This document shows, piece after piece, positions 3,878 through 56,603 of a DNA stretch of 64,000 bases. The position numbers and the translations under genes are program-made. The notes under the pieces are model-generated. The model saw only the letters and a list, made by a program, of their open reading frames with translations. It was not told the origin of the DNA and searched no databases. The first letter of the stretch is position 1. Every line of letters starts with the position of its first letter. The DNA is from Squalus acanthias (lineage: Eukaryota): NCBI GenBank assembly GCA_030390025.1, contig JASTWF010000244.1, forward strand, positions 310,001-374,000, in the 5' to 3' direction.

Positions 3878-3931
3878 CTTCATGTTTTGTCATGTTGATA
3901 TAAGGCGCATCATCTTCATTTTCAGCACAAT
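3878..3931 (-). CDS. Exon 11, short acidic Tyr-motif exon (DCAENEDDAPYINMTKHE)
   Basis: Strong polypyrimidine acceptor (tttgtttttctgttcag), G|GTAAAG donor, 54 nt, phase 1-1, in frame with exon 10. Confidence 0.75.
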
Positions 3932-6900
3932 CTGAACAGAAAAACAAATTAGTTAAATTTGACATAAGTCAAATTAAATAGGCACTTCCAATGTTAAGAG
4001 CATTAATTAACTCATCTAATAGTATTTAAAATAACTGAAGTCACCCAAAATTAACTATTCTCAGCATTAATAAAAAAAAAATTGTTTATTCAATATAAAA
4101 TCTCAATGTGAAATAAACATTCAAATTACTGTTTTGTTGAAATCAAAGCAATCAATATTGCAGTTATAACAATTTTAATGAAATGGTTTGCTTTAAATCC
4201 GACTCCAATAAAACAGCATTCACCTTTAAGGAGTAATTTGAAATCTTTCTCTTGAATTTCCTTTGTTGCTATGTGAAGCACCTCACATCTGATGAAACTA
4301 TCATGATCATTTTCAGTTGCAATAAATTGTGTGCTTACAACTGACGAGAAGAGATCATCGTCTGCAATCACAGGAGGGCTGTTAAACACATCCGAACAAA
4401 GTATCCCATTTTTAAACCACTTTACTTGGACTTCAGCAGGAGCATAGCTTGTCAATGTGATACTGAGTTTTGTAAGCTCATTAACGCCAGGCAGTTCGGG
4501 ATCAGCTTTAATAACGGACAAGGCAGGAGACAAAGCTGAAAAAACAAATAAAAAAGTACATAAGTGTTTAGCCATTGAAGCAAACTGATTAAGTTTTAAT
4601 GTGAACAAAATAAAAAGAAAAGAAAGGGTGCTTGTATAGTTTGTAATATACACAAATTATTTAAGGGAAAATTAATTAAGATCTCATGAACCTGTTCTGC
4701 AAAACTACTGTCATCAGAATTATTAGAATATTTTCTGTAGATATACAGCTCACATATTTACATAAAAGATTCTTTTAAGAACTTAAAGTGAAGATGGCGG
4801 CAGGGCGTTTTGGTGTCCCACTTCACGGCAGCATGTAGTGAAAGACAGCTTTACCCATGGGTGCCAAAGGGACTCCCGAGCAGCAAAGGTCACCGGACCA
4901 ATGCCTCAGACAGGAAGTAGTGCCTCACAAAAGTAAAAAGACCAAAACAAAACTCAATTGAAAATCACCATAATTTTAGTTATTTGATCCAAATCCTGCT
5001 AGAAGTAACTATACTAAAAGTTTGGGGATGAAATTTGATAACACTGAAAAAAGGCTGCAGACACCGCGATGCGAGATATGCCCACGCCCATTCAAGAAGC
5101 ACAGGCAGCACGTTAACTTGGTGCTGCCTGCTATCACCATGATAGCAGCGCACAGCCTAGCGTGGAATGCGCTGCTGACAGGCTGTGCGCTCAGCAGGGG
5201 GCTGAAGTTTGCATCGCTGGAGCGAGACTAGCTTTACTTAAGTTCTGACGAAGGATCACAGACCTGAAACGTTTACTCTGTTTCTCTCTCCACGGATGCT
5301 GCCTGACCTGCTGAGTATTTCCAGCATTTTCTGTTGTTATTTCAGATTTCCAGCATCCGCAATATTTTGCTATTGTATTTTTACTTAAAGCTAGCCTGCT
5401 CCTCTTCAAAGCAGTCTGCAGCTCTTAAAGCTGAGCTGCCTTCTTCAGATAAATAACGCTAAAAGTGCTTCAGCACTCATACAAATCATAGAAACACAGA
5501 CCACGATTTTCCCTACCTCGGCGGGCAAGGTCAGTGGCAGGTCGCGGCCTCACTGCTGGTTCCATCATGGCCTCCGACATGACTTTCCCCTGATTGGGCT
5601 TGTTAATCCCAAACATTTAAATATAAAAGTGGAATTTTTCAAACTGTGGGGGGAGGGGAGAAGGATCAGGGTGAAACATACCTGGAAGTGTTAAATATGC
5701 CTTTTTTACAATTGGAGTCTTTAAATTATCATGCTCCACATGGAAGGAAAAATCCTGATCAAAATCTAGTGCAGTTGGTGTTACTTGCAAGCGGGAAGAC
5801 AACCGATAACATCCATTTTCCTCCCTCTCAGGTCCGTTAGTTGTGATCCCTTTGACTATCGTTTTTTCTTTTTGCATCCAAAATGCACGGATATTTTGTG
5901 GCCGAAAGTTACTGATATCGCAGATGAGAGCAAGATTTGTACCATACCCAGTTTCTGGTGGGTCAATCTTGATGTCTTCAACAGATGGAATTCCTGTTTA
6001 AATTGCATGAAACCACAGTTGATTACAATACTGAATAACCTTCATGGTTAAGGATCAAAAAGGGAGGTTACAAAGAACTGTCTTTTTTTCCCCAAATGAT
6101 GGATATTTAAGATGACAGCAGCCATCAAATCTATCATTGTGCAACTTAGGCTTTGAGGGGAATATTAACCCCAAAACACAGGTGGGTTGGGGTCGGGTGG
6201 AAGGTTAAAGCATTAAAAACCTGAATCCCGACCCCAATCTGCCTCCAACCCACCCACTTCCAGTTTTAACAGAGGGAGGACGGCGGGAGGGAGGGGGGGG
6301 GGTTGGCGGTGGCGGGCAGCCAACCCGCACCCAGGAGGCAGGTTGGCACTTTATATAATGAGGCTAGCAGTCTCAGATTAAACCTGCTATGCTTGTTTAA
6401 TTGTGGCTGGCCGGGGTTCCCGGGCCTTGGGATTCCCAGCAGCTGCAGCGAGGAGAGGACAGCCTTGGGGAGTAATTCTTGTGGGTCGGGAGGAGCAGGA
6501 GTGCATCCTCCTGGCCCCCAAGCTCCCCCACCATCACCTCCCCCCCACCCCACCCCCCCACCTATACAACCCCTGGGTCAGAGATTGGACTTTCCTCCCA
6601 CCCCCTGGGGACGGGGATCGGACACTCCCCCCTCACCTGGGGTCGGAGCTTGCACCTACCTGTGGTTGCAGCCTCTTCGCCAGCGTTTCTCGTCTGACTG
6701 GAATCCAGCCTGTCAATCAGGCTGACTTCCAGGTGGGGAACCTGTCCGTGACGCCAAATGCACGCTGTGGAGTTAAAACCTTAAGTTCCAGGTTTACCAG
6801 CGCTTTACTGCCCACTCCCCCGGGTCCAAACTTAAAAATTCTGGCCTTTGTTTCAAAGATGGTGATGACATTTTTTACACTCTTTACCTTACAAACCATT

Positions 6901-9900
6901 TATGCTGCTGATTTGATAATCACAACTATGTTGGGATACCACCAACTTAGGGCCAATGGAGCCACTGAGAGGAACTCTGGAGTCACAGGCAAACAAGGAA
7001 TGTAAGTGGGGTGGCACAGTTACTGAAGGTATTGTGGATCACCAAAAGAGGTAGTTAAAGCCTGGGCTTCCAATGGCAAAGCTATCATCATCTTCAACAT
7101 AAACACAAAGACTGAATGTTTGAAGGACTTATGGCCACAATGCAGCGTTAATAAAATAATGTTTTATCCTCAACAATCACCAATATGCTATCAGTTTAGG
7201 CCTGTGGTGTTTGTCCTACCTGACTACCAGCCTCTATTAATAAAAACAATGTTAATTTAATGAATTTGAAACACTTAAATCTGTCCATTTACAAAACAAT
7301 CTTTTCAACATTCCATAATTGGTACTATGAAGTTGCACTTCTTGTTGAAACAATATTTACCTTTTATTTTCAAAAAATGACTGGATGAGACAGGCTTGTT
7401 TGAAGTTTCTGAGTGAAGGATTTGCATTTTGAACTCTTGTCCATGGTCCTTATCAGTTGGAATGAATGTCCTTTTGGAGAATCGAGAGTACAAACCAGTT
7501 TCTTCATCAAATTCAATTTCTTCTGTTTCAATTCCATCATGAGTTTTCTGAAACGCTTTGAACCAGAATATTTGATGATCTTCTGGAAAGAAGCCCTTTG
7601 CTTTGCAGGACAGTGTTACAGGTTTTCCCACCTCTGGGTAAAGTGGATCGGCTTTAATTTCTGTTACCTTTGGCATCGACACTACTCGTACAAAAGAAAC
7701 AGTGTTAGAGATTGTGTAACTGAGAGAAGACCACAATTAAAAAAAAAATGTCCAGTATGCCTTGATAAATTTTAAACATTGATTTCTTGAATAACTATCC
7801 TTTTTCTCTGTCCCTCTTTCTTCCCTCACACTGTGGTACAGGCCATGGCTGCAGTCAATGCTCCAGTATCTCTTGGAAGTGGCCAAGAGACTGAACGGAG
7901 TACTGGGAGGCTATTCAAGGCTGATCCTGCATTCACCGAATAAGCACCCACACACTTTGCAACAGGGGTCATTTGACAGTGACATTTCACTTCGCTAGTC
8001 CATGGGGGCGGAGGCAGATAGTACCACTCCACCTAGCGGAGATCAGCAAACTCAGGGATCAGACTTGCAACCTTACAGTTCTCTATGGCTCAGGCCCGAA
8101 TCGGGTGGTGCATTTTCCCAATGAGCTAATAGGGAGCTGCAAACAATCCTTTCCAACTCTATTCAGCTTGGTTCAGCAGTACTGCTCTTGCCACTGAAGG
8201 TGGTCTGGGTTCTCGAGGCATTCCAGGACTTGAGGAAATAATTTACGCCGACAGGTCAGTACAATACTGAAAGAGCACTGCAGTACTGAAAGGGGCCCTG
8301 TCTACCTCTTCAGGTGAACATTAAAGATCTCATTGCACTTATCCAAAGAGCAAGGACTTCTCCTGATGTCCTGGCCAACATTTCGCCCTCAAAACAAAAT
8401 CACCAAAAAAACAGATTAACTGGTCACTCATCACATTGCTGTTTGTGGGACACTGCTCTGCACAAATTGCCTACAAAACAACAAAGATTACACTTCAAAA
8501 CTAATTCATGAGCAATCAAGTATTTATGGACTTAAATAGGATAGGAAAGGCACTATATAAATGCAAGGTTTTTCTTTCGTATTATTGTTCTCAGTTATTC
8601 TGGGCTTTTATTTTATTTATTGCTCTTCCAGATCAAAAAGTACCCCAAATGGAATATTTTTCACAGACTGCAAAAAGATCAACTCAGATTTTCTCAGTTT
8701 GCGAAAATATCGAAAAAACAACCAAGGTAATTTTATTTTTGGGTGAGAGCAAGATTTCCATTTAATTTATTTTGGTTTCTTTATTCCCCTTGTCTCCAAT
8801 CGGATCACTCCAGGTCATGGGCCTTCACGAACAGACCTTTGCCAATGCTGAAACTGCCCAGTAGAATTGTTAGTCACCAACTTAAATCTGTATATTAGTT
8901 TCAGATTATTATTTCCCAATTAACAAATCAGAACAACTAAACACATTAGTCGATTATGCCCCAGATTTTGCTCTCAAAATAACAATGAGTCTAACGGCGC
9001 TCACTGTTATTTATGCTCAAATTGTACAGCAACTTCAGGTGAGGGGTAGATGCGTGGTTAAACTCAAAAATCCAAAAGTTGCTGTCTGAGTTGCCTTTAG
9101 CTTCACAAAAAGGGCATCTCGCCGTTTGCCTCACCATTGAAATGCACTGAATGGCGTGGAGTTGCTGTATTTGCGCAGTAGATCCGAACTAAACCCGCCA
9201 CAGAAAGTTAGGGCTGATCTGAAGTGACGCAAAGACCCCGTCTTGGAGCCATTTAAGGTCCGTGCATATTTAATTAAGCATGGATTCAGACAAAGGGAGC
9301 GTTTTAAGCTGATAACAAAATACTGCGGATGCTGGAAATCCAAAACAACAACAGAAAACGCTGGAAAAACTCAGCAGGCCAGGCAGCATCCGTGGAGAGA
9401 GAAACAGAGTTAACATTTCAGGTCGAAGACCCTTTTTCAGAACTGGAAAAAAGCAGGAAAGGAAATAGATTTAAAGCAAGTATAATGCTGGGAAAAGGGG
9501 GAGGGGATATAAGAACAAAAGGGGATAGAAAGCAGGAGAGATTAAGAGACATTAAGAGATAATCAAGGCAAGAGGAGGTGGTAATGTGACAGGTAGAGTC
9601 TAGATGAGGTGTGAAATGTGCTGGCAGAATGAAGAACAGCTGCCAGCTTCTGGGCGGGAAAAAAAAGGCCAAACAAAAGGGTGGATGAAAAAATAAAATA
9701 AAAAAAAGTGATAGGAGCCAAGGTTATGATCTGAAATTGTTGAACTCTATGTTGAGTCCAGAGGGCTGTAGGGTGCCTAAACGAAAGATGAGGTGCTGTT
9801 GCTCGAGCTTACGCTGAGCTTCTGTGGAACAATGCAAGAGGCCGAGGACGGTGAGGTCAGAATGGGAGTGGAGCGGAGAATTAAAGTGACAGGCCACCGG

Positions 9901-12900
9901 CTTTTTAAGCTGTCTGAGATTCTTTTAATAATGTGTTAATTATGGCCAATCAACCTCACTGGCACTGAAAAATAACTATTACAAGTGTGGAGTCTCATTC
10001 CTTCAGGTATTAATTGTTGGATATTTTAAAAATGTAAAATTTTAAATGTAATTTCTTTTAAAATCTTTTATTTTGTCTCTTTTTCTCTCTTAATCCAAAC
10101 TTTCTTTCCCTCTCTTTCTGTACCTGATTGACATTGAATTCACCCACTCTAATTTACATTTCCTGCTCAGACCTTGCACTGTTAATTTCACTATCATTCA
10201 ATCTGATTGGTTAAGGAGATACACATTTGCTTTCCCTGTTCACTCAGGTCCCAAATGCCTGGGCTGGAATCTTTACCTTGGAGTCGGGTTGTGTGCGTGC
10301 GGGCCGCGTAGCCCAAAGATGTGAACAGCACGTTCTGCACTGCGCATTTTACTGGATAGCTCCAATTAAAACAGTCATGTGCGTTTCCTGGCCCAATTAA
10401 ATGGAGCGGGTCTGATGACATCATTGATCACTCGTTTCCAGCGCGGATATTTAAAGCAGCCTTGCACGCATCACATTTGAAGATTGATGTAGGAGTGCAT
10501 AACGTGATTTCCAGAGGTTTCAATAATGTGATAAAACTGTGGGTCATGGAAACGAGGCAGAGGGCCGCGCCGAGATTCAACGATGCCTCTCTGGAAGTTC
10601 TGGTGCAGGCAGTAAGAGCACGCAGGGAGGTCCTCTTCCCTGGCGATCGACGCAAACGACCAACCAAAGACACAAAAAGGACATGGCTGGAGATTGCAGA
10701 GGAGGTCAGTAGCAGGGATGTGGTCAGGAGGATGTGGCTCCAGTACCGGAAAAGATTCAAGGATCTCATGAGGTCAGGAAAGGTGAGTGCAATGCGGTCA
10801 CTTCATGAACTCGCACAATGGCCACTGAGCTTCCGCCTGCCCTTCACAGGTGAGGTTCCTGTGAATTCCGTGCTCAAGAAGTTAAAGCTAAAAGCTGCTG
10901 TTAAAAAGCCTCTTAAGCGTCTCTCAACAAGCATTTAAGCACTTCAATGAGGTCACCCGCCTCAGCCGAGCAGGTCCGTGGCACGCTGGGAAACGTCCCG
11001 ACTTAAATGCGGAAGTTGGCGGGTTGCCGACACGCTGGAAATTTCGGCGATTTTTACTGCTGACCCGCCACTAACCCACACGCTTGGGACTGGGAAAATT
11101 CAGGCCCTGGTTTCCCTCGCTGTGATATCAGCTCGCACTTCCAGCAACTTGCCACGCTAAAATTTTAAAACCTAAATCATACCAGGGCAAATCTAACTAA
11201 CAGCAGATGCCGTTAGATGCCCTGCCACAGCAAGTTATGGCCCTACATGTTTTTATAAGAAATGTTCAGAAAAAAATAGTAATAGTCATACTCTGGTCAG
11301 AACTTGTTTACTTACCCAGTTTACCGAGTAGCCAGTCAGCTTCCACTGGCTCTGTTAGGCTCTCATGTTCTACTTGACAAGTGTATTTCTTCTCAACATC
11401 AGCTCTGGTAGGTACAATCTTCACACTACTTGTCAAGTAATAGAGTCCATCCTTTCCCAGAGTTGCTGCACTAACTTCACATTCTTCTGTCATTTTCTCA
11501 CCATTTTTGAGCCATGTAACTGTGATTTCACTGGGGTAAAAAGAATGTATTCGACAGTTTAAAGTCACAGCCTCTTCTGCAACTAGTTTTTCTGCTTCAT
11601 ACTTTATCGGGTCCAGTTTTGGAGTGGCTGGAAAAAAACACACACAAAAAGAAAATTACCGCAGGCTTTAACACAAGCAGATTAGAGATATTGTGGACTA
11701 GATTCTCTGCCTATCCACAGCCAATAACCAGAACATTTAATCCATTGTGTTCTGAAAATTCTGAAATAAGACCCAAGGATAAAATAAAAAGTTACACAAC
11801 AAGCTCATTTAAATCAGTGACTCCAGGGCAATCAGCTAATATGTTTCCCTGTTAAATATTTGAGTTCTGAATATTCTTGGATGCATTCTGAATACTTCCC
11901 TTGTAAAAGTATCACTGTCTTCAAGGAGTTATTAAAGAAATACAGCGCTCAGGACATGTCACTCTTCACAGGATTTGCCAAATAAAATTAGCAATTTTGT
12001 TGCATTACAAAAAACAAGGAAACAGTATCTGGAAACAAAATGTTATCCATTGTTCTATACAAGGTATTGTCAAAAATATTACATACCTCTAATCTTTAGA
12101 ATTATTTCTTTCTGTTGGTCACTGCCAGTGCACTCATGCTGTACCTTACAGATGAACTTCGTGTCCTGGTCTTGCAGTATATCTGGCACAATAACTAGTA
12201 CACTGGTGATGCTGTATGTTTTGTCATCATACTCCATCTCACTTATGTAATGGTGATACTTGGACTTCTTCCCTTTGTCACTAGGATAGATTGTTCTGTT
12301 GTCCTTATCCAGCTGAACGATTTCTTTCAATTTATTATTCTTTCCAACTTGTTGCCATGTGATACTTAATGGTCTTGGTTTAAATCCATTGATTGGACAA
12401 GCCAAGGTCACAAACTCATTATGATTGGTGTGAGGTGGCACCACAATGTTTGAAATCTTTGGTGGCACTTTGGGGAGAAAAAAACAAAATAATCACTTAT
12501 TTAAACTGAAAGAATTTTTACTAGTTAATAAGAGCAAGAAAATATTATTCTGCTGTCTGAATTTTCTATGATTTAGAGTCTACAGATGGCAGAACTGCAT
12601 TACCACTATTAACCACATGAATGTCACTTCATACGCACAAATACACGCACAAATACACAAGTTAACAAAAAAGAATAGAATCACATAGCATAAACATTAA
12701 TGATTAAGTGCAAATGTTCATGATTTACCTCCTTTAACATCCAGTGTTACAGTTTTCATAACAGGTGACGCAAGAGTTTTATGTTGAACTTCAATAGTTA
12801 ATTCAGCCCCATCATCGCTGTATAAATCAGGATACGTTTTGATATCGCACTTTAAATTGGAAGTTCCGTCACTGTTAGTTTCATATTCCGGTTCCAAGGA

Positions 12901-15900
12901 CTTCAAGAATGCATCTTGTTCACACCCATTCATAAGAACCTGCACTTCATCTAGTTTTCCGTTGTGCTTTGTTTTCTCTTGGTTCTTTGCGATCTGGTCC
13001 ATACTATTCCAGCAAAAAATTTTCTTTTTGTTTTCATCCCTCTTCCTCTTTAAGAATAAAGCAAGTATAATGCCCTGTGGTCTAAATCCGGTAATTTGGC
13101 AACGGATGACGGCTACCTCAAAATGGCGAATGTCGAGAGGAATGTTGAATTCAGTAATTTTTGGAGTAGCTAATCAAAACAAAAGTCAATAAAACTTGAC
13201 AATCGAAATGTTCTCATTTGTTTACTCTGCTTTATTTTCTTGCTAGGATTACAGGTAGAAATGTATATACACAAGACATGATAATGGCCTGTATTTTCCG
13301 ATCCCTACGGCTGTGTACGAGCTGTGTACACACCCGTAGGGGCCTCGCAAGGGCCGGTTTCAGGCATGTGAAGTGCATGTGCTGAAAACCGGCACTTCCG
13401 ATCTGTCAAGAATTCTCTTGACAGATCATCCGCCTGCCCTGGAGAAGGGCCTCTGTGGGTGGAGAGTTCCGCTTTCTGAAGAACCCTCCGCCCGCTGAAA
13501 ACCTTTAAAAATCTTACGCCTGGTAAAAGCAGGCGTAAGTTCTGCTTTTACCAGCAAGAGAGTTTAAAAAAGTAAAAAAATAAAAAAAAATTCCACTCAT
13601 TTATAACTTTAAAATACTTTTAAAAAAGGTAAGTTTACTTTTAGCCCAGTAAAAAATTTAATTTTTTTTTCCAAAAGTTAAATTTTTGTTTAAAATATTT
13701 AATTTAATGTAATGTAATTAACTAATTTTAAAAACATGATTTTTTTAAAAATTAATGTTTTAGTGTGTATTTTGAGTGATCCCAATTCATACATTTGACA
13801 GGTCTAAGCTGAAAGACCTGTCAAAAATATGAAGGGGGATTCCCTTCTTCCATTGGTTCCCCATGGCCCACGTGATCCGAGGGACGCTTCCAAACCGCCT
13901 GCGCCCCTGGGATACCTGGGCCTCTGCGCATGCACACCAGGAGAGGCCCAGGAGCGGAAATGTCCAGACCTCCGGAGCCCTCAGGTAAGGGTGTAGATTT
14001 TTTCCAGATCGGAGGCATTCGCACGCAGGAAGCCTCTGATCGGAAAATACGGGCCATGGTGTATGTATACACAGGGCAGGAGTTTCCTTAAGGTTGTGCT
14101 GTTTTTTTGAAGCACAATTCATCCGAAAATTTCCAAGCCAGTGCAAATTACGTCCAATGCAAAGCGAGTTTAAAAAACATTGTACAAGAAGCCAGCCCCG
14201 CCCACAAAACTGGCCACGCCCCCAGAGTGAATTCATCACCATTGCAAGTTTCCCTAATTGCTCCCATTTGCAGGCCTTCAAGGAGGCTCTTAAAATTAAG
14301 CTTTTTTTTTAGGAGCAAAGGCACAAATAGGCATGTTTTCAAAGCTTCTGAATATAATTTATTTTTAATTTGCTAAGAAACTGTCTACTGTACACCAATA
14401 TAACTAGCAAATGGTCCTGTATAGTTTTAAAAGTAATTTTCAGTTATTCAAAATTGGGTTACTCACAGGTGGTGGCCTAGACACTGATTAAAAATGCTTA
14501 TTTTTTGTGATAAAGCCATTTTCAGCTGTATTAAGCAAACTGCACCAAGTTACCACACTTAAATACATCAAGGAATATTTTTTAAAGCAAATTTAAAAAA
14601 GAAATTACATTCCAAAATGCTGCCCGATTGCGCTGGTTCATGGCAGGTTTTACGTTTGGTGAAATGCAAATGAGTTTGATCAGAAACAGGGGAAAAAATA
14701 CACTTCTCAAAACGAGTGGAATTTTAGGTACAATTGCACCTAGATTGCCAATTGCGCCCAAAGCGGAAACTCCAGGCCAGGTTCTCTATCTAACACCATT
14801 ATGTGAGAAGTCGCACAACACCAGGTTATAGTCCAACAGTTTTATTTGAAATCACAAGCTTTCAGAGCGCTGCTCCTTCGTCTGATTTCAAATAAAACTG
14901 TTGGACTATAACCTAGTGTTGTGCGACTTCTCACATTTGCCCACCCCAGTCCAACACCGGCATATCCACATCATAACACCATTATGGGAGCACAATCACC
15001 ACAAGGACTGTTGTTGTTCAAGAAGGCCCACCACCACCTAATTTGGGGAAAACATGCAATAAGCAGCCAAAGAATTACAAGAACACAAATACACACATAG
15101 TTATTGTACAATAAAAGGGTTTCACCAGTCAACACATTACCTTTTTTTAATTTTCTGTAAGCATAAAATCCAGCTAAAAACAATAGTGCACAGAACAGCA
15201 ATGTACCAATTATGCTTCCAGCAACCGCACCTGCTGCAGAAGATTTCACAGGCTCTGAAATTTGAAACATAAATACATTAAGCATTTAGACAAAAAACAT
15301 GCAACAAGAAATAAACTGCTTCACTTGCACAGAGTTTGTTATGGTGCTCCTCCATTTCTGTAAATTAGAAATGAAGATACTTAAACGCAGTAAAGTATTT
15401 AAAGAATTTGAAACTATGTGCAGTTAATGTCCCCTCTAAGTAATGGCCTAGAAATTTCATGCAGTGAATTGCACTCCTTTTGCACCAATGAAAAATAAGT
15501 TGCTGCTGCCGGTGGCCTGGAGAGGTATTTACACCACAATTTCATGGGTCAGCTCATTTGCATGTGCATTAGAAAAGTGCAAAACAGGAGTAATATGCTG
15601 TGTTGCATGGAAATTAGAGTAGAGTCTTTAAAAAGCCAGTTCTGGCTGAAGATTGCAGCAGCAGGCAAGTAACGAACAGTGCTCGACTTAGTGAGTTGAC
15701 TGTATGTCACCTGACTGTTTTTGGGACACTTTACAAGAATGTTTAACACAGGAGAACCCAGCAGAGGCAGCCAAAGGCAGAAGGAGGGTATGAGACCAAG
15801 GCAGAGAAGGTGCCACAGTTTCGCTGAGTCCAACCTGCAAACCCTCCTCAATTAAATAAAGCACAGGAGACAGAATGATTTGTGTCCATGGCAGGAAACA

Positions 15901-24900: not shown

Positions 24901-27900
24901 AAAAGTAAGAGATTAGTGAAAGTAAACATGAGTCCCTTAGAGGCAGAGACAAAACAAATTTCATGGGGAATAAGGAAATGACAGAGACGTTAAACAAATA
25001 TTTTGTGTCTATCTTTACAGTAAAGGACACAAAGAACATAACAGAAATTGTGGGGAACCAAAGGTCTAATGAGAGTGAGGAACTCAAATTAATATTGGTA
25101 AAGAAAAAGTACTGGAAAAATTAATGGGACTAAAAGCTGACAAATCTCGTGGACTTAATGGCCTACACCCTTTTTAAAAGAGGTGGCTGCAAAGTTAGTG
25201 GATGCATTGGTTTTGATCTTCCAGAATTCCCTAGATTCTAGAATGGTCCCCGTGGATTGGAAGGTAGCAAATGTAACACTGCTGTTCAAGAAAGGAGGGA
25301 GAGAAAACAGGGAACTATAGGCCAGTTAGCCTGACATCAGTAATAGGGAAAAAGCTAGAATCTCTCATTAACAATGTGGTAACAGATCACTCGGAAAATC
25401 ACAATACAATTAGACACAGTTTTATGAAAGGGAAATTGTGTTTGACAAAATCGAGTTTTTTGAGGGTACCACCATTTAGAAAGTACCCTGTTCTATGCTT
25501 TTTAGCTCCAAAGTGGATGACCTCACATTTGCCTACATTGAAATCCATTTGCCACAGTTTTGCCCATTCAATTAATCTATCTATGTTCTTAATGTCTTTT
25601 CATTGTGGAGAATTAAAGGATGAATTCTTGATTTAAATTAGATGAAAACCTCAGTAGAAATTCAATGTTAAACAATGGGCACAAGTCATTTTAAACAATT
25701 GTAAAATTTAACAAAAGCGCACTGAAAAATATTCCCATCTTACGCAAGGAAGAGGACATACCTTTCACTGTGAGCACAGTTTCCAGTGAACGACTACCAG
25801 GAAGTGATCGGTGCTTCATGACACACCTGTACTTATTATCATCATCATCCACTGTTGGTTCAATTCTCATTCTACTGGAAACATTAAAGGTTCCATCACT
25901 GTTGGAAATTGGGGCACCAGTGCAGATATCTGTTATTATTGTCACAGTTTTGTCCTTTGATATCTTCTCCCAGATGAGCTGATGCTCCGATGGATAAAAT
26001 CCTGTAACGTCACATCTCACAGACCCCTCTGAACCAGTCAAAATGGTAATGTGTTGTGTGGACAAATGGACCACTGGTTGAGCTGTGTTGAAGATAAATG
26101 TAACAATTGGTCAGACAGGCTGAAGGCACATTACCATAAACATCTAAAGCCAGATCAAATTTTTGTTGTGTAAACGTATGCTAAGCACACCACTTTCCTT
26201 CCTTCAGGTATTTCTCTCATATAATAATCTACTCGGTTTCTTCAAGGATGTGGATAATTCTATCTGGAGTGAATTAAGTAACTACTCCAATACCTCAAAT
26301 TCAGATTGAAGCATTCCAAATTCCTCCACCACCAACAAGCATTTTTATAGCATGTTTAATGTACAAAAATGTTTCAAGGTGCGTCACAAATGATGGGGAG
26401 GGAATAGAAGAGGTGACTAAAAGCATGGTGGAATACATATGTTTAGAGAAGGTGTTTGAAAGCAGAGAGAACACTCTGCTACCAGCAGTGGAATGGAGAG
26501 GGCAGGGAATGCACAGGAAGCCATTGAGGAACAAAATACTTGGGGTGGGGCACAAGAGTGGAGATGAGGAGAAAGGGGGGGACGAGGAGAAAGGGGGGCG
26601 ACGAGGAAAAAGGGGGGGACGAGGAGAAAGGGGGGGGCGAGGAGAAAGGGGGGCGACGAGGAAAAAGGGGGGGACGAGGAGAAAGGGGGGGGCGAGGAGA
26701 AAGGGGGGGCGAGGAGAAAGGGGGGGCGAGGAGAAAGGGGGGGGGACGAGGAGACAGGGGGAAATGAGGGGGAGGAGGCAAAGAGGGGGGGTGGAATAGG
26801 AAGAGGAGGTAGAGGTGAAGGAAAACAACAATGTATTTATATAACCTTCAATGTAGATAAACCTCCAAAAGGCACTTCAGAGAGGCATAATCCGTTTCAA
26901 AAAATGGTAAGGCAAAGGAGATATTTGGAGGGGTGGCCAAAAGCTTGGTCAAAGACATTGGTTTTAAGGAGGATCTTAAAGAATGAGAAGGAAGTGGAAA
27001 GATGGAAGGTGCTTAGGAAAAAAAATTGCCACAACATAGGGCAAGGTAGCTGAAGGAATGGTGGGATGGAGCAGTGCAGGATACTTAAGAGGCTATGGTC
27101 AGATTAACGGAGTGTTCGGGGCAGGGTTTGTAGGCATGGAGGAGGTTACAGAGATATGAAAGGGTAAGGCTACAAAGGAGTTAAACAATTTAAAATTCAT
27201 GAACAATACTTCAGCACTATTTATACATAACATTTTAAAAATATTTATTGTATTGAGATTTTCTAAACCCTGGACAAATCGGCCAGGAAATATTCTCATG
27301 CCATTGAATTTGGTTAGAATTGCTGCAGAAATTGGCCTTGACAGACCATAGAATTCTAAGGGCTATGGAAATAATACACTCTCAAAGGGTTTAGAGTGAT
27401 GGTATTAAAAGTCCTCAAATTTCCAGTAGTACATCTACCATATTAATATAACATTTTTGTGCAATTTTTAAATTATGTTTTATAATGATACTCTGTTGGG
27501 ATTGTGTGCATAATTTGTATTTTTTCACTGCTTATATAGCCCATCATAATTTCAATGTTGGGAGTATTCTCATTCGTTGGGTGTGTTTGTGACCGACTAA
27601 AACTCTTCTACTCTTCCCCAACACTGTACCTCACCTTTCTCCTCAGAGAAGTACCCCGACTGCACCATTGTAAGTTTCCAATTTCCCACACAGCCTTCCT
27701 GCTGGTCTCAGGAGTGAGATTGCCAATTCTGTGCCAAAATTAAGAGTGCTCAAACTCATTTCACACATACTGCTAGCAGACAGAGCGGAATCTCATTCCA
27801 TCAGTCTGGGCTGCATTCAAACCCAGACTTCACTGGTGAAAAGATAAGTGTGCTAACCCAATGAATCACCTATTCTACCTTGAGCATGTTTATTCTACAC

Positions 27901-30900
27901 CTTTATGCTTAAATGTACTGTACCTTAGTGTTTCCCCAACCCAACAACTTAATGCAGAGATCAACAACAGTTAACATTCTGGAGACTTACCTGACACCTG
28001 CATTTCTGAACTCTTTGATACCTTATCAGGAGTGACAAATACAGTACAAGTGTATTCTCCTTCTTCATTAAACTGTACATTTGGAAGATGAAGTGAAGCA
28101 TCTCCTTTCTGTAATTCGGTTTCAGACATTTTTGCTCCAGATCTTTTTGATGAATGTTTTCCTCCATTAAAGACATAGATCTCTTCATTTTTGGGCCCAA
28201 ACAACCACTGAACACCTACATTTGTTAAGTCGAGTGTTGGTGTTCTATAGCCTGTAACTTTACATTCCAGGGAAACATCTTCATTCACTAAGACATTCTT
28301 TGGTCTTGCAAATATGTTCACATCCAAGGCTTCTAAATATCAATAGAACAATTAAACATTAATATCTACATTCAAGTATCACAACTAGAAATAAAACAGA
28401 TTCAAAATATACTGCTTGATGTGGCACAGTAGCACTGCCATGGAATGGTTGGATGCAAGGCACATCCATGATTCCCTGACGTGGTGCACTATCAATCTCT
28501 CATCCCTTTGATTGGGGTTGAGCAAATGACAGATGCTTCCTCACAGGGAATTAGGGAGCATCACATTAGGTAATTCAAATGCATGCCCTAGCAACTGATT
28601 ATGAAGCAGAAAAGGTGGAAACTTCAAAGCAAGTTGTATGACTGTCCTCCCAGGTGGGTATGATGCTTAGAATGGGAATACTACAAAAAGAGAGAAAAAT
28701 AAATATTAGGATGATATATTTCTATTGACACACACACACACACACACGTCTCCAAATCTGTTGACTTTCTCTCTCAAAAGGTGACAATTGGTGCTGTTGT
28801 GGGGTTCAACAGTCACAGTAGCCCTCCAATATAGTCAGTGGTAGTCCTCAAATACCTTGTCCAAGTGGTTATTCTTCACATGTTAACGCAAACATTGTTA
28901 GAAAACTATTCAGCCATGAAGGTCTGCAGCTGATCTCTATCCTGTATTCCTGTCAACACACATGCACATTGCAGAAGTTTGTCGATGACAATCAGAAGTG
29001 GGTCACTGGGCTATACATGAAGTTTCTGTTTGTCAGATATGGAGGGAAACATTTACTCTGGCAGGGCTTTTGCTGACCTCCGCGGGCGACATCGGTGGCA
29101 AGTCCCGACCCCGCTGCTGGCTCCAGCCCGCTGTCCAAACTGACTTTTCATTGATGGGGCTTGTTAAGCCCGCCCAGCGCGTTTGCCGGTCCAATTAAAG
29201 GAAGCTGGTCTGATGACGTCATTTGACGACGCATCATCAGCCGGTTTCCTTAAAGGGACCATGGCCAACCTTATTTTGACATTTGTGCTGTCGGTGTTCT
29301 ACAGCATTGAGGTGCTGCAAACACTGACAAGCACTGTACAGAGGTGCAGGGCTGCACTCAGGTTCTCCCATGACTCCCTCCATATGCTTATGGAGGGAGT
29401 TACAGCACACAGGGAGCTCCCCTTCTCTTCCCATGGGCGGAAGAGAACTCCCCAGGAGACCAACACAGCCTGGTTGCACATTGCACAGGAGGTCACAAGC
29501 AGGGATGTTGTCAGGAGGACCTGGGTGCAGTGGCACAAACCTTTTAATGATCTCAGTAGATCACAAAACGTTAGTAAAACACCACACCCCCTTCATCCTG
29601 CTGTGCCTCTCATCACATCCCCTACCTTCCCCCTGCACATCCTTACTCTCACCAACTTACCTTGCACCTCCACCCATCCCTCTTTCTCTGTCTACATTAT
29701 CACAACCCCATCTCACTAGCCACCCTCACACTCACCCTCATCTGAGTGCAATCATACCAACTAACAACACACAAGGGTAGCCACTTGTGTGTTTTATCCA
29801 ATGTTCATGTAAAGTTTCTGTTAATGTGCTGTCAAACATTGAAATCTTTATTTTCAACACTTTGCGTTCTTGGACAGATTTGTGAGCACCTTTAGAAGTG
29901 GCTTAGTGAGCTGCAGTGAATGGTGAGACATAACGGTACCCACTGCAATGATGGTGAGTGTGAAAGGAATGGCTTGGGTATTGTAGGGATGCTTTATGGT
30001 GTTGGTGTGGGGTGGTGCCAACCTGGCGCATCATGTGGCAGCCAGGGTGTACAGCGTCAAGTGAAATAAATCTGGCCATGGTGAGGCCGTCCCTGGCCTC
30101 CCGGGCAGCAATGTGCTCGGGTGCTGATGCCCTCTGTCCTGTGCAGCATCAGGTGATTGCGGAGAAGGTTGGTGTTGTTGTTGCTGCAGGTGTGCCTGGT
30201 GCTGCTCGTGTTGGGGCTGGTCGTGGTCGGATTCTGAGGACCAAAATGAGACAGTATAAAGGGCACCCATGTTGATGGAATAGATGGCAGGTGAAGTAGA
30301 GATGACGGTGAAGTAGAGATGACAGAAGCATTCTGTCAACGGTGAAAGAGTTCTTCCAATGAGGTGAGAGTGGAAAGCCTGAAGAATATGTGCTGGAAAT
30401 TGACTGAGAAACAGCTTGTGGCTGAGGCAAGTGATGATCTGTCAGGTGGGAGCTTTTACTGTGCATTTGAAGCTGTCAAATAATCAGCTGGAGCAATGGC
30501 CACTGAACTCCCGCCTCAGGTTGACAGCCGTGGTCCCCGACCAGCGTGGTTCCCATAGCCATGAAGTTACAGTGAAAAGGTAAGTTAAAAAAGCCTGTTA
30601 ATGATCTGTTAATGACATTATAATGAGTTTAATTAGGACCCCCGCCGCTGCCTGTCGGGGCTGCTCAGCGCTGAAAGACCCGACATTGGGAAAGGCACGT
30701 GGCGGTGGGTTGACAGCGGGGTCCTGACCCGGTCAAAAAAAATCCACTTTTCCACCCGACCCACTACCGATCCCACCCGCTGAACCTCCCGTAAAATTCC
30801 GGCCTCTGTAAGGGCACATTCCATTTACCCAAGTTCAGAAAACTTAGAAGCAGGTTTGCAAATGCCACACTTTAGCGCCCCCCTCCCCCACCAAGTGTAT

Positions 30901-45900: not shown

Positions 45901-47042
45901 AAAAATTTTCTCACGGACAAAAAGGTCGCAGTCAAAGGAGTTCACAAAAAAAAGAGGGAATATTGCTCAGAGGGTTTTTAAAAAAAATATTCATTCTCAA
46001 GATGCGTCACTGGCAAGGCTGACATTTATTGCCTATTTCTTCTTGCCTTGATACGGTGGTGGTGGGCCTTCTTACTGAACTACTAATGGTAATTTGATAC
46101 GATTAATGGCTTGCACTTCAGAGGGCAGTTAAGAACCAACCACGTTAAGTGTTGTACTGGACTCGCTTCTAGACCACATTGGGACAGGTTTCCTTCCTTA
46201 AAAGGACATTAGTAAAGATTTTTACCACAATCTTCATGGTCACTTTTGCAGATACCAGCTTTTTATTACAATATTTTTTTAAAAAAAACGTTTTTATTAC
46301 TAAAGAATAATCTGAATTTAATGTTTTTTGAAACGGAAACTAAACAATGAAGTTTGTTTCCCACTCTTTAATTGCGAAGTACCTAAAATAATTCAACACT
46401 TTTCGTGATAAGAGCAGGGATTAATATTGTGGAGAATGTTTGAGAGAAAAACATTGGGAGCGAGGGTCATGAGTCTTTGGAACTCTCTTCCTCAGAGGGC
46501 GGTGGAAGCGGAGTCTTTGAATATTTTTAAGGCAGAGGTAGATAGATTCTTGGTAAGCAAGGGGGTGAAAAGTTATCCGGGGGTAGGCGGGAATGTGGAG
46601 TAATCAGATCAGCTATGATCTTATTGAATGGCAGAGCAGGCTCGAAGGGCTGAGTGGCCTGCTCCTAGTTCGGATGTAAATGCGGAATGGGTGGGGCTGG
46701 ACTCATGGTACAAAGTATAATTTTCTAAACTTAATTTTTTCCCCCACACAGAACTAGATATACCGTCAGCCTTTCACTTACAAGAACTGGCAATAAAACA
46801 CACACAAAAGGTTGCTTAAAATATACAATTCCTGAGACTGACTCTGGAAAAGAAACTTCTCGTTTGTTGAGACTCCATTTTGTCAGCCCAAGTTTTTAAA
46901 AGAAACATAATTTACACTGGAGAATTTGGAGGACTAAGCGCTGCGATGTTTCTTTACCTGCGGGACAGACGAGCCACACCGCGAGCAGAGCCCACACCAG
47001 GGTCCCGGGACCCCGCAACCCTCCGCAACCTCGAGCCGTCAT
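3878..47042 (-). CDS. NCR3LG1: Multi-exon B7-H6 (NCR3LG1)-like IgSF gene: SP-IgV-IgC1-TM-6xIgC1-Tyr motif; 3' end not found, probably outside the window
   Basis: Eleven exons with canonical AG/GT boundaries, all phase-1 introns, 2995 coding nt in one open frame. The V and first C1 domains match B7-H6 motifs as I recall them (GDASLxLPxxQxxExGEYxCxVxVTP; GFYP..WEK..TGxxIxNxDGTFNVxS..YxCVxxHxSL). Joining the post-TM exons to the same transcript is an inference. Confidence 0.75.
4224..4535 (-). CDS. Exon 10, post-TM C1-set Ig domain D6 (B-strand Cys replaced by Ile)
   Basis: ALSPALSVIKADP..LSITLTSYAPAEVQVKWFKNG..DDLFSSVVS..IRCEVLH; 312 nt. Confidence 0.88.
5240..5382 (+). mobile_element. Penelope-like terminal repeat fragment
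   Basis: ctgacgaagg..cctgaaacgt..gatgctgcctgacctgctgagtatttccagcattttctg; same family at 9312-9440, 36598-36681 and 57893-57965. Confidence 0.65.
5682..5993 (-). CDS. Exon 9, post-TM C1-set Ig domain D5 (F-strand Cys replaced by Phe)
   Basis: GIPSVEDIKIDPP..LICDISNFRPQNIRAFW..NGCYRLSSRL..DFSFHVEHDNL; 312 nt. Confidence 0.9.
6156..6845. mobile_element. Harbinger-type MITE
   Basis: Imperfect TIRs ggggaatattaa / ttaaaaattctggcc around a GC-rich body. Confidence 0.5.
7361..7681 (-). CDS. Exon 8, post-TM C1-set Ig domain D4 (F-strand Cys replaced by Met)
   Basis: VSMPKVTEIKADP..LSCKAKGFFPEDHQIFWFK..GLYSRFS..EFKMQILH; 321 nt. Confidence 0.9.
9312..9902 (-). mobile_element. Penelope-like retroelement 3' fragment (GIY-YIG C-terminus)
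   Basis: The minus strand encodes PVACHFNSPLHSHSDLTVLGLLHCSTEAQRKLEQQHLIFRLGTLQPSGLNIEFNNFRS*; 10-bp TSD ttttaagctg. Confidence 0.8.
10262..11106 (+). mobile_element. Non-autonomous Harbinger derivative retaining the Myb/SANT-like exon 1
   Basis: TIRs with CTG TSD; METRQRAAPRFNDASLEVLV..WLEIAEEV..RKRFKDL followed by a GT donor. Confidence 0.8.
11316..11627 (-). CDS. Exon 7, post-TM C1-set Ig domain D3
   Basis: ATPKLDPI..LNCRIHSFYPSEITVTWLKNG..DGLYYLTSSV..YTCQVEHESL; 312 nt. Confidence 0.92.
12087..12467 (-). CDS. Exon 6, post-TM C1-set Ig domain D2
   Basis: VPPKISNIVVP..LACPINGFKPRPLSITW..DKTYSITSVL..FICKVQHEC; 381 nt. Confidence 0.9.
12729..13169 (-). CDS. Exon 5, post-TM C1-set Ig domain D1 (long insertion; lacks F-strand Cys and C-strand Trp)
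   Basis: ATPKITEFNIP..IRCQITGFRPQGI..NSDGTSNLKC..ELTIEVQHKTL..; 441 nt open, AG/GT boundaries. Confidence 0.85.
13286..14055. mobile_element. Harbinger-type MITE (same family as 33586-34362)
   Basis: TIRs ggcctgtattttccgatc / gatcggaaaatacgggcc; AT-rich core. Confidence 0.8.
14074..14778. mobile_element. Harbinger-type MITE
   Basis: TIRs ggcaggagtttcc / ggaaactccaggcc; CAG flanks. Confidence 0.65.
14804..14973. mobile_element. Penelope-like terminal fragment with inverted duplication
   Basis: About 53-bp near-perfect inverted repeat; 13-bp TSD taacaccattatg at 14791-14803 and 14974-14986. Confidence 0.7.
15141..15254 (-). CDS. NCR3LG1: Exon 4, transmembrane helix plus basic stop-transfer segment
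   Basis: EPVKSSAAGAVAGSIIGTLLFCALLFLAGFYAYRKLKK; tttcag acceptor, gtaatg donor, 114 nt, phase 1-1. Confidence 0.88.
15445..18960 (+). mobile_element. Old Harbinger-like element interrupted by an L2 LINE
   Basis: TIR-like ggcctagaaattt; decayed Myb-like frame (..QCHKKLNDLT) and acidic exon remnants; right end approximate. Confidence 0.45.
16400..17108 (-). mobile_element. L2-type LINE 3' fragment
   Basis: (aac)n tail; frame ..GHAFSCQGPKLWNSLP..SSFKMLLKTYL. Confidence 0.8.
20682..22584 (+). pseudogene. Harbinger Myb/SANT-like DNA-binding protein (3 exons, frameshifted)
   Basis: SDTALEALVQE..WEQIAVEVNA..RTWMQ..KFHGL | EKVSHNRRQQQLTGGG (21194-21353) | exon 3 from 21505. Confidence 0.8.
22758..23855 (-). 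pseudogene. Harbinger (HARBI1-family) DDE transposase, disrupted
   Basis: AINFYASGSFQ, AIDCTNV, YPGSSCDAFIL, LLGDQGYPLTTWLMTP, KQTIGVLKQRFRCL; stop codon and frameshifts. Confidence 0.88.
24250..25465 (+). mobile_element. CR1 LINE ORF2 internal fragment, degenerate
   Basis: YESKLARNIKTDCKSFYKYVKSKR; VPVDWKVANVTLLFKKG..NYRPVSLTS. Confidence 0.8.
25762..26082 (-). CDS. NCR3LG1: Exon 3, extracellular IgC1 domain
   Basis: AQPVVHL..VRCDVTGFYP..IWEK..SDGTFNVSS..KYRCVMKHRSL; both Cys and the Trp present; NVS sequon; 321 nt. Confidence 0.92.
26560..26820 (+). repeat. Purine-rich minisatellite (about 19-20 nt, GCGAGGAGAAAGGGGGG)
   Basis: Roughly ten imperfect tandem units with G6-G9 runs. Confidence 0.85.
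27991..28332 (-). CDS. NCR3LG1: Exon 2, IgV domain of B7-H6-like protein
   Basis: EALDVNIF..SLECKV..VQWLF..GDASLHLPNVQFNEEGEYTCTVFVTP..; ttag acceptor, gtaagt donor, 342 nt. Confidence 0.92.
29041..30805. mobile_element. Internally deleted Harbinger element
   Basis: Myb-like exon (RFSHDSLHMLMEGV..WLHIAQEV..KPFNDL) on +; short transposase-like remnant on - (30031-30271); TIR-like ends. Confidence 0.7.
31245..32869 (-). mobile_element. CR1/L2-group LINE, 5'-truncated RT
   Basis: NYRPISL, FDIKAAFD, GVPQGSVLGP, FADD motifs; 41-bp TSD at 31204-31244 and 32870-32910. Confidence 0.88.
33310..34690 (-). mobile_element. L2 LINE fragment split by a MITE
   Basis: LINE sequence ccaaagacaat|ggctttggt rejoins across the insertion; GVS*RS..HAAPW..SSED remnant of the RT. 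Confidence 0.65.
33586..34362. mobile_element. Harbinger-type MITE
   Basis: TIRs ggggcagaaattcggg / cccgaatttcttgccc; AAT TSD. Confidence 0.85.
36682..37428 (+). mobile_element. L2 LINE 3' fragment
   Basis: NLGVISDPEMSFQPHI..AETLIHAFVTS; (gtt)n tail. Confidence 0.82.
37949..38303. mobile_element. GC-rich Harbinger-type MITE
   Basis: TIRs ggccccgaaatt / aatttcgccc; CAT TSD. Confidence 0.7.
38636..39510 (+). repeat. (GA)n / GAGACTGGGG compound repeat
   Basis: Direct observation; includes the N gap. Confidence 0.9.
38678..38815. other. Assembly gap (138 N)
   Basis: Run of n. Confidence 0.99.
40436..40629 (+). repeat. Gypsy 5' LTR
   Basis: tgtggtaac...cttacgaca. Confidence 0.95.
40708..44706 (+). 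pseudogene. Gypsy gag-pol single ORF with an in-frame TGA at 43924-43926
   Basis: Two CCHC knuckles, protease LIDSGS, RT (LPFG..YLDN), RNase H (CDAS..EKEA..TD), integrase HHCC and D,D-E. The frame continues past the stop into the integrase C-terminus. Confidence 0.92.
44679..44872 (+). repeat. Gypsy 3' LTR
   Basis: Direct repeat of 40436-40629. Confidence 0.95.
45185..46455 (+). repeat. 110-bp direct repeat pair (45185-45294 and 46346-46455)
   Basis: Near-identical copies with two mismatches near the 5' end. Confidence 0.9.
46958..47042 (-). CDS. NCR3LG1: Exon 1, signal peptide (MTARGCGGLRGPGTLVWALLAVWLVCPA)
   Basis: ATG at 47042, hydrophobic core LVWALLAVWLV, small residue at -1, G|GTAAAG phase-1 donor, locally CpG-rich. 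Joins the V exon in frame. Confidence 0.8.
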
Positions 47043-54691: not shown

Positions 54692-56603
54692 TCAGATCAT
54701 TCCAGAGCGCATTAATTTTTCCTGTTCCTTCACTAAAGCTTTTGCCTTTCTCTTCCTCTGTACTCTTTTACATCCCGCACATGCCATTAAGAGTAACATT
54801 ATTACCAATACAAGTTGCACAATTACCAATACATGTGAGATTATACGAATCCATGGATGTATATCAACATTCAGTCCCCAATCCCATACACGTTCCCACC
54901 ATTGAGTGTCTTTCAGGGTTTCTTTGATGTCCTTTGAATGCTGTATGGAATCTTTCAAGATCTCATGATAATGTCGTATGCTCTTCTCAGTGTCCTTTTT
55001 CAATTGAGTCAAGTGTTCTTTGAGACGTGGAATGTCTTGCCAACTCGGTATCTCATATTGTTTCATTTCATCATCCCAGCTCGGGTTGTTTAAGGTGATG
55101 TTCTCGGCGTGTTCCTCTCGTTGTGGGAATAGGTATCGATTGCCTAGCTTGACCACAGTTTTAGGCGTAAAACAGAAGTTAGGTTGTGGGATCGCACATT
55201 CAGTACCACCATGATCGTACTTATTTTCGTTAGTAGATATACAGTACCCCCCATTATCCCGGGCTGCCACCTCAGTTCCTCTATGACTGAGGGAACTAAT
55301 CTCCAACGTGCAGTTAACTGTCTGAGTGAACCTACACATCGTGCATTGCCCTCCCTCCATGGGGTGTGCGCACACTACCACATCCAAATATTGAGTGCAA
55401 CCTTCGATTTGCACCCCTTGGAATGTGTCACTTTGTTTTACCGCATAAGGGGCGTATCGTGGAATTTTACCCGGGATTGACCTTGTACTTCACCTATGTT
55501 CTGTACTGCCCACAGAGGTTCGGCCTCCGAGACCTCTGTTTGTGGAATAGCTAAAATCATACCTATCAGTTTCAGTTTTTTAGTAATGCAATTACTTGGA
55601 GATAGGAACACTTGTGTTGTTTTCCGCACATCGCAGAGGGCAATACCGTCGCGTGTCCATTATGACAACTGATCATTACTTATCCCATCGGGTATCTTAC
55701 CCTGTTTAATCTGGTTTATATTATGTTGGATATTCCCTAGTAACCATGTGCCGTACATTGCACATACGAGTTCTTTGTGTTTCTTGGGTTAGATCATTCA
55801 GTCGTGCACTTATTTTATTAATGGTTTGGGCATGAGGCTCTCGGATCTCCTCGACCTGCAGCATCTATCTAGCGATTTCTTCCCCTGTTCCTGATAACCG
55901 GGAAGTCAGATCGTTACCCTTCTTCAGAAGGGTCCTTAAGCGTTGAGCTAAGTCTTGGACTTCTTGGTCTATACTGCTTATGTCAAAGGTGTTAACAGTT
56001 GCCACCCCCGCCGCATACCCTGCTCCTGCCATTTCTAGGACCTCCCTCTTTTTCCTATTTAATCGCCCTTGTGGTCCTATTAATTGTTTCTTTAATAAAT
56101 TCTCCCATAATCCCGTCGTGTGTTTATCACATTGCTCGGGTAAGGCTATCCTGCTGATATTAAGGGCAATTTTAATCGTTTGGTGGAACACTCCAAAATA
56201 TCCCACCTTTCTGGTTTGTTTCACAACCAGACCTCCTCGGGCTCCCTCTCATATTTCGGGACATGGCAGAGGGGGCAGCGGGGTTGGCTTTTGTCCCCTT
56301 CTTACTTCATACCTTCCATTTGATTTACAATATCTACCGGTGTTCTCGTCCGCGCCCCGGCATTGTCGAGGCATTCAATGGACACTGCATCTATTCGTCG
56401 CATCCTACTTATGATGCCTCTATTTTAGAAGGAACATTGAACACAACCGCTCTTCATACCAGATTACTCCCTACAGTATCCTTGATGGATTTACAATATA
56501 CTTACTATATTTCTTATCTCTTCTTATGGATGGTTAATGAGGTAATGCCTCCTGTATTCCAGGCCTGACCTTGTAAAGTCATTACAACCACTATAGAATC
56601 CAT
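54692..56603 (-). pseudogene. Retroviral-type envelope, F-protein-like (lokiretrovirus-like), disrupted
   Basis: Furin site RKKR (56045-56056), Gly/Ala fusion peptide, heptad region, Cys-rich middle, second heptad, Trp-rich MPER, TM and basic tail; several stops and frameshifts. Confidence 0.78.

Follow-up and report, generated by a model that had tools for sequence, protein, structure and literature searches.

The window analysed here, a stretch of 64,000 nucleotides of the Squalus acanthias genome (contig JASTWF010000244.1, positions 310,001 to 374,000 of the forward strand), holds on its minus strand all but the end of an intact gene of the B7-H6 (NCR3LG1) family. The preferred reading, to which we give a probability of roughly 0.75, is that the product of this gene has a single membrane anchor followed by seven likely cytosolic immunoglobulin (Ig) domains of the C1 type, which are predicted to fold independently of the canonical disulphide and likely serve as a scaffold. 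The parts of this reading differ in strength. The cytosolic location and the disulphide independence are highly probable, supported indirectly by topology, N-glycosylation sequons and cysteine pattern; the topology is the main proof of the cytosolic position, and the cysteine pattern corroborates it. That the tail is a scaffold for partners is a best guess, with a little less than an even chance, and the weakest step; it is proposed because the tail comprises seven separately conserved domain types and a signalling role has been proposed for the unrelated human tail.

Gene structure and family assignment

Twelve exons with AG/GT boundaries, separated throughout by phase-1 introns, are predicted to join into a frame of 3300 nucleotides whose sole stop codon is the terminal one, encoding 1099 residues (Table 1). 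The splice model is based on splice signals, reading frame and colinearity with a database protein, P0001. This was the one longer protein found with the D1 query, a model from the sawshark Pristiophorus japonicus (1102 residues, 61% identical), and its translated search (tblastn) against the window and its flanks gives a colinear exon series with 61-82% identity per Ig domain. The domain order is signal peptide, V, C1, transmembrane (TM) segment, D1-D6, an acidic linker of 18 residues, and D7. Hydropathy peaks at the signal (1.85, residues 15-33) and at one TM segment (2.38), with a maximum of 1.23 past residue 300. D2-D6 match the C1-set family (PF07654) with 30-74 bits against a cut-off of 21. 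The ends of the interval singled out in a preliminary description of this DNA, 13169 and 4224, coincide exactly with the D1 acceptor and the D6 donor.

The best sequence match of P0001 in the PDB is human B7-H6 (E 7.2e-31), with B7-H3 (CD276) at 2.7e-15, and the ectodomain of the P0001 model overlays the human B7-H6 chain with a TM-score of 0.87; apart from B7-H6, Foldseek with the whole protein returns generic multi-Ig entries. Two frog homologues carry the NCBI name NCR3LG1. Like human B7-H6, the Squalus protein has a signal peptide, a V + C ectodomain and one TM segment, the layout of a type I membrane protein. Unlike it, the Squalus protein does not have a Gag-homologous tail; its tail is made of about 810 residues of C1-type Ig domains, and its gene is a member of a tandem cluster. 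The human protein, of 454 residues, has a tail homologous to Gag, and immunoreceptor tyrosine-based inhibitory (ITIM) and Src homology (SH2 and SH3) motifs are predicted for it, according to the available part of PMC2715080.

Table 1. Exons of the B7-H6-family gene, followed by mobile-element and other open frames in the window
Feature	Position	Strand	Basis
Exon 1: start codon and predicted signal peptide	46958..47042	-	P0001 tblastn; hydropathy; GT donor, phase 1
V-set Ig exon, both canonical Cys	27991..28332	-	Pfam V-set E 9.6e-12
Extracellular C1-set exon, both canonical Cys, conserved N-glycosylation sequon	25762..26082	-	Pfam C1-set E 8.8e-09
Single TM exon, then basic cluster; 114 nt, phase 1 at both ends	15141..15254	-	Hydropathy 2.38
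D1: post-TM Ig domain with long insertion; B Cys kept, F Cys to Ile, C-strand Trp to Phe	12729..13169	-	Predicted fold; without Pfam match
D2: post-TM C1-set, both Cys	12087..12467	-	Pfam C1-set E 7.2e-10
D3: post-TM C1-set, both Cys	11316..11627	-	Pfam C1-set E 1.6e-20
D4: post-TM C1-set, F Cys to Met; alternative in-frame acceptor 7684	7361..7681	-	Pfam C1-set E 1.9e-08
D5: post-TM C1-set, F Cys to Phe	5682..5993	-	Pfam C1-set E 7.4e-11
D6: post-TM C1-set, B Cys to Ile	4224..4535	-	Pfam C1-set E 5.1e-07
Acidic linker exon, tyrosine motif Y-x-N-M; leads to D7 and stop	3878..3931	-	Splice sites
D7: post-TM Ig domain, F Cys to Leu	Contig C1615 309690-309386, 310-614 bases before window start	-	67% identical to last domain of P0001
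Long terminal repeat (LTR) retroelement gag-pol frame, 1079 residues, in intron 1	40687-44706	+	Protease, reverse transcriptase, RNase H and integrase matches
Open frames (265 and 127 residues), envelope-type membrane-anchored look by eye	54692-56414	-	No Pfam match
Myb/SANT and DDE_Tnp_4 (Harbinger-type) transposon frames and long interspersed nuclear element (LINE)-type reverse transcriptase fragment, in introns	10360-10938, 23127-23627, 31889-32800	+, -, -	

Cysteines, sequons and charge on either side of the TM segment

In the Squalus gene the classical Ig cysteines of both the B and the F strand are present, at the sequence level, in V (codons at 28264 and 28048), C1 (26014 and 25825), D2 (12399 and 12150) and D3 (11556 and 11379), and the pair is incomplete in D1, D4, D5, D6 and D7. 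On the minus strand, the F-strand Ile of D1 is encoded at 12795-12793, the Met of D4 at 7427-7425 and the Phe of D5 at 5745-5743, while the B-strand Ile of D6 lies at 4461-4459. These codons bear out the preliminary description, which had reported pairs in both ectodomain Ig domains, no F-strand cysteine in D1, D4 and D5 and no B-strand cysteine in D6; the motifs that it listed are also found, F/Y-x-P and V/I-x-H in D1-D6 and the C-strand Trp in D2-D6, with Phe in D1. It had left the complete pairs of D2 and D3 unstressed, and D7 was missed. Five of the seven post-TM domains lack the pair, against none of the two pre-TM domains, a sample that in one gene alone is too small for statistics; the sawshark orthologue P0001 has the identical pattern.

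A search of 1.84 billion representatives returned 176 proteins at E<=1e-30, and the arrangement V-C1-TM-Ig array occurs in named members from ray, chimaera, bichir, sturgeon, coelacanth, lungfish, newt, many frogs, lizards and a turtle. The survey covered 151 proteins (P0001 and 150 listed matches), of which 98 have one TM segment with Ig domains on both sides and seven have a C-terminal TM segment and served as extracellular controls, two of these being named as a fish ighd and a shark 'titin-like' model. The remaining 46, with no TM segment, several, or one side devoid of domains, were left out, as were domains gapped at either cysteine site (2/199 pre-TM, 19/411 post-TM).

Of the pre-TM domains, 190 of 197 keep the cysteine pair, compared with 190 of 392 post-TM domains and all 59 control domains; when the controls were searched again with a profile of their own, 72 complete matches resulted, all with both cysteines, besides ten partial matches. 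Counted per protein, retention is higher before the TM segment in 83, lower in three and equal in nine. The contrast is far beyond chance (Fisher test), with p-values that overstate the number of events, since the homologues are related and so not independent. The losses are thus concentrated after the TM segment and not, as had been claimed, confined to it: seven of the 197 pre-TM domains also lack one cysteine. Hydrophobic residues take the place of the lost cysteines, mostly Val, Ile, Leu, Phe, Met and Trp. Spare cysteines number 0.49 per 100 residues in pre-TM domains and 0.35 in the controls, and 1.89 in post-TM domains, where 219 of 411 domains have an odd cysteine count.

The ratio of observed to shuffled sequons is 1.9 in pre-TM domains (316/168), 2.1 in the controls (71/35) and 1.14 in post-TM domains (273/240). 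The best ectodomain sequon column, in C1, is common to 18 of 32 aligned rows, and any post-TM column to at most four. The three sequons of the Squalus protein itself (one each in C1, D2 and the linker) are uninformative. In agreement with the positive-inside rule, the net charge is more positive after the TM segment in 76 of the 98 proteins and less so in ten.

Age of the losses, predicted fold and selection

The losses recur at fixed positions. The F-strand cysteine of D4 is found in no D4 row of the 32-row alignment (A1), and among the homologues its orphan B-strand cysteine is kept in 53 of 56; D6 keeps its orphan F-strand cysteine in 56/56. D5 has the B-strand cysteine in 54 of 56 rows and the F-strand cysteine still in 36, mostly frogs. 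At this last site Phe stands in sharks, bichir, lungfish and coelacanth and Cys in amphibians, so that either a loss or a regain has occurred. Orphan cysteines are as conserved as paired ones, which indicates that conservation needs no bond. Further conserved cysteines lie in the A strand of D7 (41/41), the E strand of D1 (88/102) and the A strand of D4 (39/56). A compensating B-E disulphide in D1 was considered and is unsupported: 29 of the 88 cases with the E-strand cysteine have none in the B strand (p 0.13), and D1-like repeats of paralogues retain the E-strand cysteine while the B site is Trp.

In a domain tree computed with the cysteine columns masked (189 domains, 23 proteins), D1-D7 each form their own cross-species clade with support of 0.87-1.0, apart from three divergent D4 rows outside the D4 clade; the deep branching is too weak to name a donor of the array. 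State changes on the family tree (30 of 32 rows) number one for the F site of D1, none for that of D4, one for that of D5 and one for the B site of D6, compared with four for the F site of D7 and nine for the B site of D1. With zero or one change, the former four losses are old and inherited, one per domain type. As reconstructed from the sequences, the cysteine losses are few ancient events and not new decay. The preliminary description had proposed an orthologue alignment as a check for lineage-specific decay, and the same losses are indeed found at the same positions across distant species; post-TM loss is shared by homologues from cartilaginous fish to amphibians, and the four losses that the description offered as evidence count as single ancient inherited events, not as independent events in sharks.

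An AlphaFold model of P0001, built on the 32-row alignment, has a mean predicted local distance difference test score (pLDDT) of 84.4 and contains nine beta-sandwich domains; confidence is low only at the termini, the approach to the TM segment, the D1 insertion and the linker. Given a predicted template-modelling score (pTM) of 0.40, no domain arrangement can be read from it. D1 of the window, modelled alone, reaches a pLDDT of 88.7. Its Ig fold is clear without a Pfam match: the top VIA entry is the human B7-H6 C domain (Z 11.1, root-mean-square deviation 1.8, 98 aligned residues), with V and C2 entries within 1 Z, the top Foldseek entries are beta chains of class II of the major histocompatibility complex (MHC) and beta2-microglobulin, and in the domain tree D1 groups with D2 (support 0.87). 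In these models, a kind of check suggested in the preliminary description, the domains are predicted to fold; AlphaFold says nothing on disulphide dependence.

Relative to two old paralogues, whose synonymous divergence (dS) is near saturation, the ratio of nonsynonymous to synonymous substitution rates (dN/dS) is 0.47 and 0.25 for the domains without a pair, 0.36 and 0.27 for D2-D3, and 0.39 and 0.41 for the ectodomain. Compared with distant species, D1-D5 show an identity close to that of the ectodomain, and D6-D7 a lower one. The data support domains that are predicted to fold and have been under long-term purifying selection.

Proposed role, rival explanations and known systems

By analogy with the family, the V domain would engage an NKp30-type receptor, and the tail, with its seven distinct Ig modules in a cytosolic and reduced chain, could serve as an extended scaffold through which ligand engagement outside is coupled to partners within the cell. 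Because no disulphide would form in the cytosol, each canonical cysteine may act as an ordinary buried core residue, swappable for Ile, Val, Met, Phe or Leu while its partner stays; spare cysteines would be tolerated, and the pairs of D2 and D3 would be reduced core residues. For the human tail, signalling has been proposed and its mechanism is undemonstrated, as stated in the accessible part of PMC7654602. It is an even bet that the ancestral jawed-vertebrate B7-H6 had a hitherto undescribed cytosolic rod of C1-set domains, a class of fold known elsewhere from immune proteins that are secreted or exposed at the surface, and that this rod is a signalling scaffold which persisted from sharks to reptiles and gave way to a Gag-derived tail toward humans, with the position-specific cysteine losses recording the adaptation of a disulphide-dependent fold to the cytosol.

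A number of observations weigh against a disulphide-independent cytosolic scaffold. The pairs of D2 (B-strand cysteine in 73/73 homologues, F-strand in 71/73) and D3 (77/78 and 76/78) are near-invariant from sharks to reptiles and are kept as strictly as those of the ectodomain. Every post-TM pair is retained in 11 of 96 homologues, and a further seven three-domain reptile and frog proteins out of seven retain all of theirs. Since D2, D3 and this subfamily keep their pairs, cysteine loss appears to be permitted and not required; of the support that the preliminary description drew from it for a reducing compartment, the shared post-TM bias stands. The pooled post-TM sequon excess is small yet non-zero (z 2.3), and in A1 both D2, at 1.48, and D5, at 1.66, have a higher sequon ratio than the extracellular C1 (1.30). 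The TM exon is absent from four database models (P0020, which is Bombina NCR3LG1 isoform X2, P0006, P0047 and P0138). The linker tyrosine motif occurs in three of the 20 homologues listed and was rejected as a general signalling element. Besides the near saturation of dS mentioned above, dN/dS relative to two near-identical copies is 1.09 and 1.91 for the domains without a pair and 1.41 and 0.63 for the ectodomain, values that come from just 11 and 4 synonymous changes; one of these copies has a frameshift in D1, and rearranged cassettes also occur. The structural selection claimed earlier holds against the old paralogues (0.25-0.47), and the ratio is about 1 against near-identical copies in the same genome.

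The last values, together with broken and repeated D1-D3 cassettes in neighbouring copies, would suit a view of the post-TM exons as decaying duplicates in which the cysteine losses are damage under relaxed selection. This view is contradicted by identical loss positions in sawshark, ray, chimaera, bichir, sturgeon, coelacanth, lungfish, newt and frogs, and the rarity of state changes at the four sites, the open frame and the ectodomain-like identity of D1-D5 leave it scarcely credible. Very improbable too is a different topology, with D1-D7 extracellular or luminal and merely poor in disulphides. Extracellular Ig domains without a disulphide do exist, such as the N-terminal domains of CD2 and CEACAM, and D2 and D5 show some sequon excess; with only one TM segment, however, V and C1, with their invariant disulphide cysteines and conserved sequons, would then sit in the cytosol, and the positive-inside rule opposes this.

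Two further explanations accept the cytosolic tail and are each unlikely. In one, a secreted isoform that skips the TM exon also matters, and the D2 and D3 cysteines form real disulphides there. The TM exon, with phase 1 at both ends, can be skipped in frame; P0006, P0020, P0047 and P0138, in which D1 or D2 follows immediately on C1, would be secreted, and the D2 and D3 pairs hardly vary. These are, however, four clear cases (and one more doubtful) in 151 proteins, all database models unchecked against reads; the secreted form would bear many unpaired cysteines, given the odd counts in post-TM domains, and the equal conservation of orphan cysteines makes retention explicable without pairing. 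The other holds that oxidative stress or force makes the cytosolic chain form or isomerise disulphides, as happens in titin, and that display or signalling of the stress ligand is controlled in this way. The extra conserved cysteines of D7, D1 and D4 would fit such a switch, although that of the D1 E strand is uncoupled from the B-strand cysteine. Buried disulphides of cytosolic titin Ig domains withstand reductant, according to the part of PMC5766482 available, and the real disulphides of titin would be compatible with a redox role.

The C1-set comprises the constant domains of antibodies, T-cell receptors and MHC, taught as extracellular and disulphide-bonded; the Ig domains of titin are of the I-set. 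Titin is not attached to a receptor and thereby differs from the Squalus protein, whose domains are of the C1-set, to which the constant domains of MHC, antibodies and SIRP belong. The likeness lies in the tandem cytosolic Ig domains with B- and F-strand cysteines partly retained: in titin, the precedent for cysteines kept in this compartment, CysB is present in 43% and CysF in 42%, and some real disulphides are formed (PMC5766482, same part). IgD/IgW-type heavy chains, SIRP and MHC share with the Squalus array the fold family, single-domain phase-1 exons and the F/Y-x-P and V-x-H motifs; their arrays precede the TM segment and have the pair in 59/59 domains scored, whereas half of the domains of the homologues' post-TM arrays lack it.

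A search of the Atlas gave generic C1-set clusters only. In the literature searched, an intracellular C1-set array on a B7 ligand is undescribed, and an earlier account in work on B7H6 of cold-blooded vertebrates is possible; the available parts of PMC11599192, PMC10751288, PMC6514059, PMC12272517, PMC13262535 and PMC3964593 make no mention of such an array. The family, with some members database-named NCR3LG1, and disulphide-free cytosolic Ig domains are already known; their combination is apparently new. Tandem C1-set domains on the cytosolic side, in a vertebrate family of such age, would provide natural cases of this fold working without its bond, and matched domains with and without the pair would be useful for folding studies and intrabody design. 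The history of the natural killer (NK)-cell ligand B7-H6 would be altered: different tails (Ig array, low-complexity tail, Gag) seem to have been swapped in its course, and what the old tail does can be tested in the homologues of Xenopus and Anolis.

Genomic setting and variant tails

The window contig (C1615, unplaced) is colinear with 45.46-45.62 Mb of the chromosome sequence C10, inverted and at about 94-98% identity, inside a tandem cluster. The order on C10 is nucleobindin exons (45.33-45.35 Mb), the cluster (45.42-45.67), KCNJ11 (45.693) and SUR-type exons (45.77-45.79). These neighbours are named to type, NUCB1 and NUCB2, and likewise ABCC8 and ABCC9, being undistinguished; KCNJ11 is called with 621 bits against 560 for KCNJ8. 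The arrangement matches the human gene order, NUCB2-NCR3LG1-KCNJ11-ABCC8. The human B7-H6 gene is placed at 11p15.1 in the part of PMC2715080 cited above.

Tails vary among the homologues. A second group from frogs and bichir, putative relatives of B7-H6 (P0051, P0060, P0086, P0089, P0091 and P0122) has the arrangement V-C1(-C1)-TM with up to a dozen post-TM C1-type domains, which alternate between pair kept and pair missing. P0069, P0070, P0077, P0079 and P0120 (those named being from chimaera and bamboo shark) combine the same ectodomain with long tails without detected Ig domains, which suggests that the tail is exchangeable. Within Squalus, the nearest chromosome copy of the window gene has its D1 exon split across two frames (C10:45593807-45594258) and is a pseudogene or an assembly error. 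A near copy at C1615:36672-142099 contains repeated D1-D2-D3 exon cassettes, some truncated, pointing to active tail expansion. At C10:45435791-45445845, C10:45498085-45512831 and C1615:459030-470704, the tails of paralogues are repeats of one domain type, either D4-like or D1-like without both canonical cysteines, the latter with Trp at the B site.

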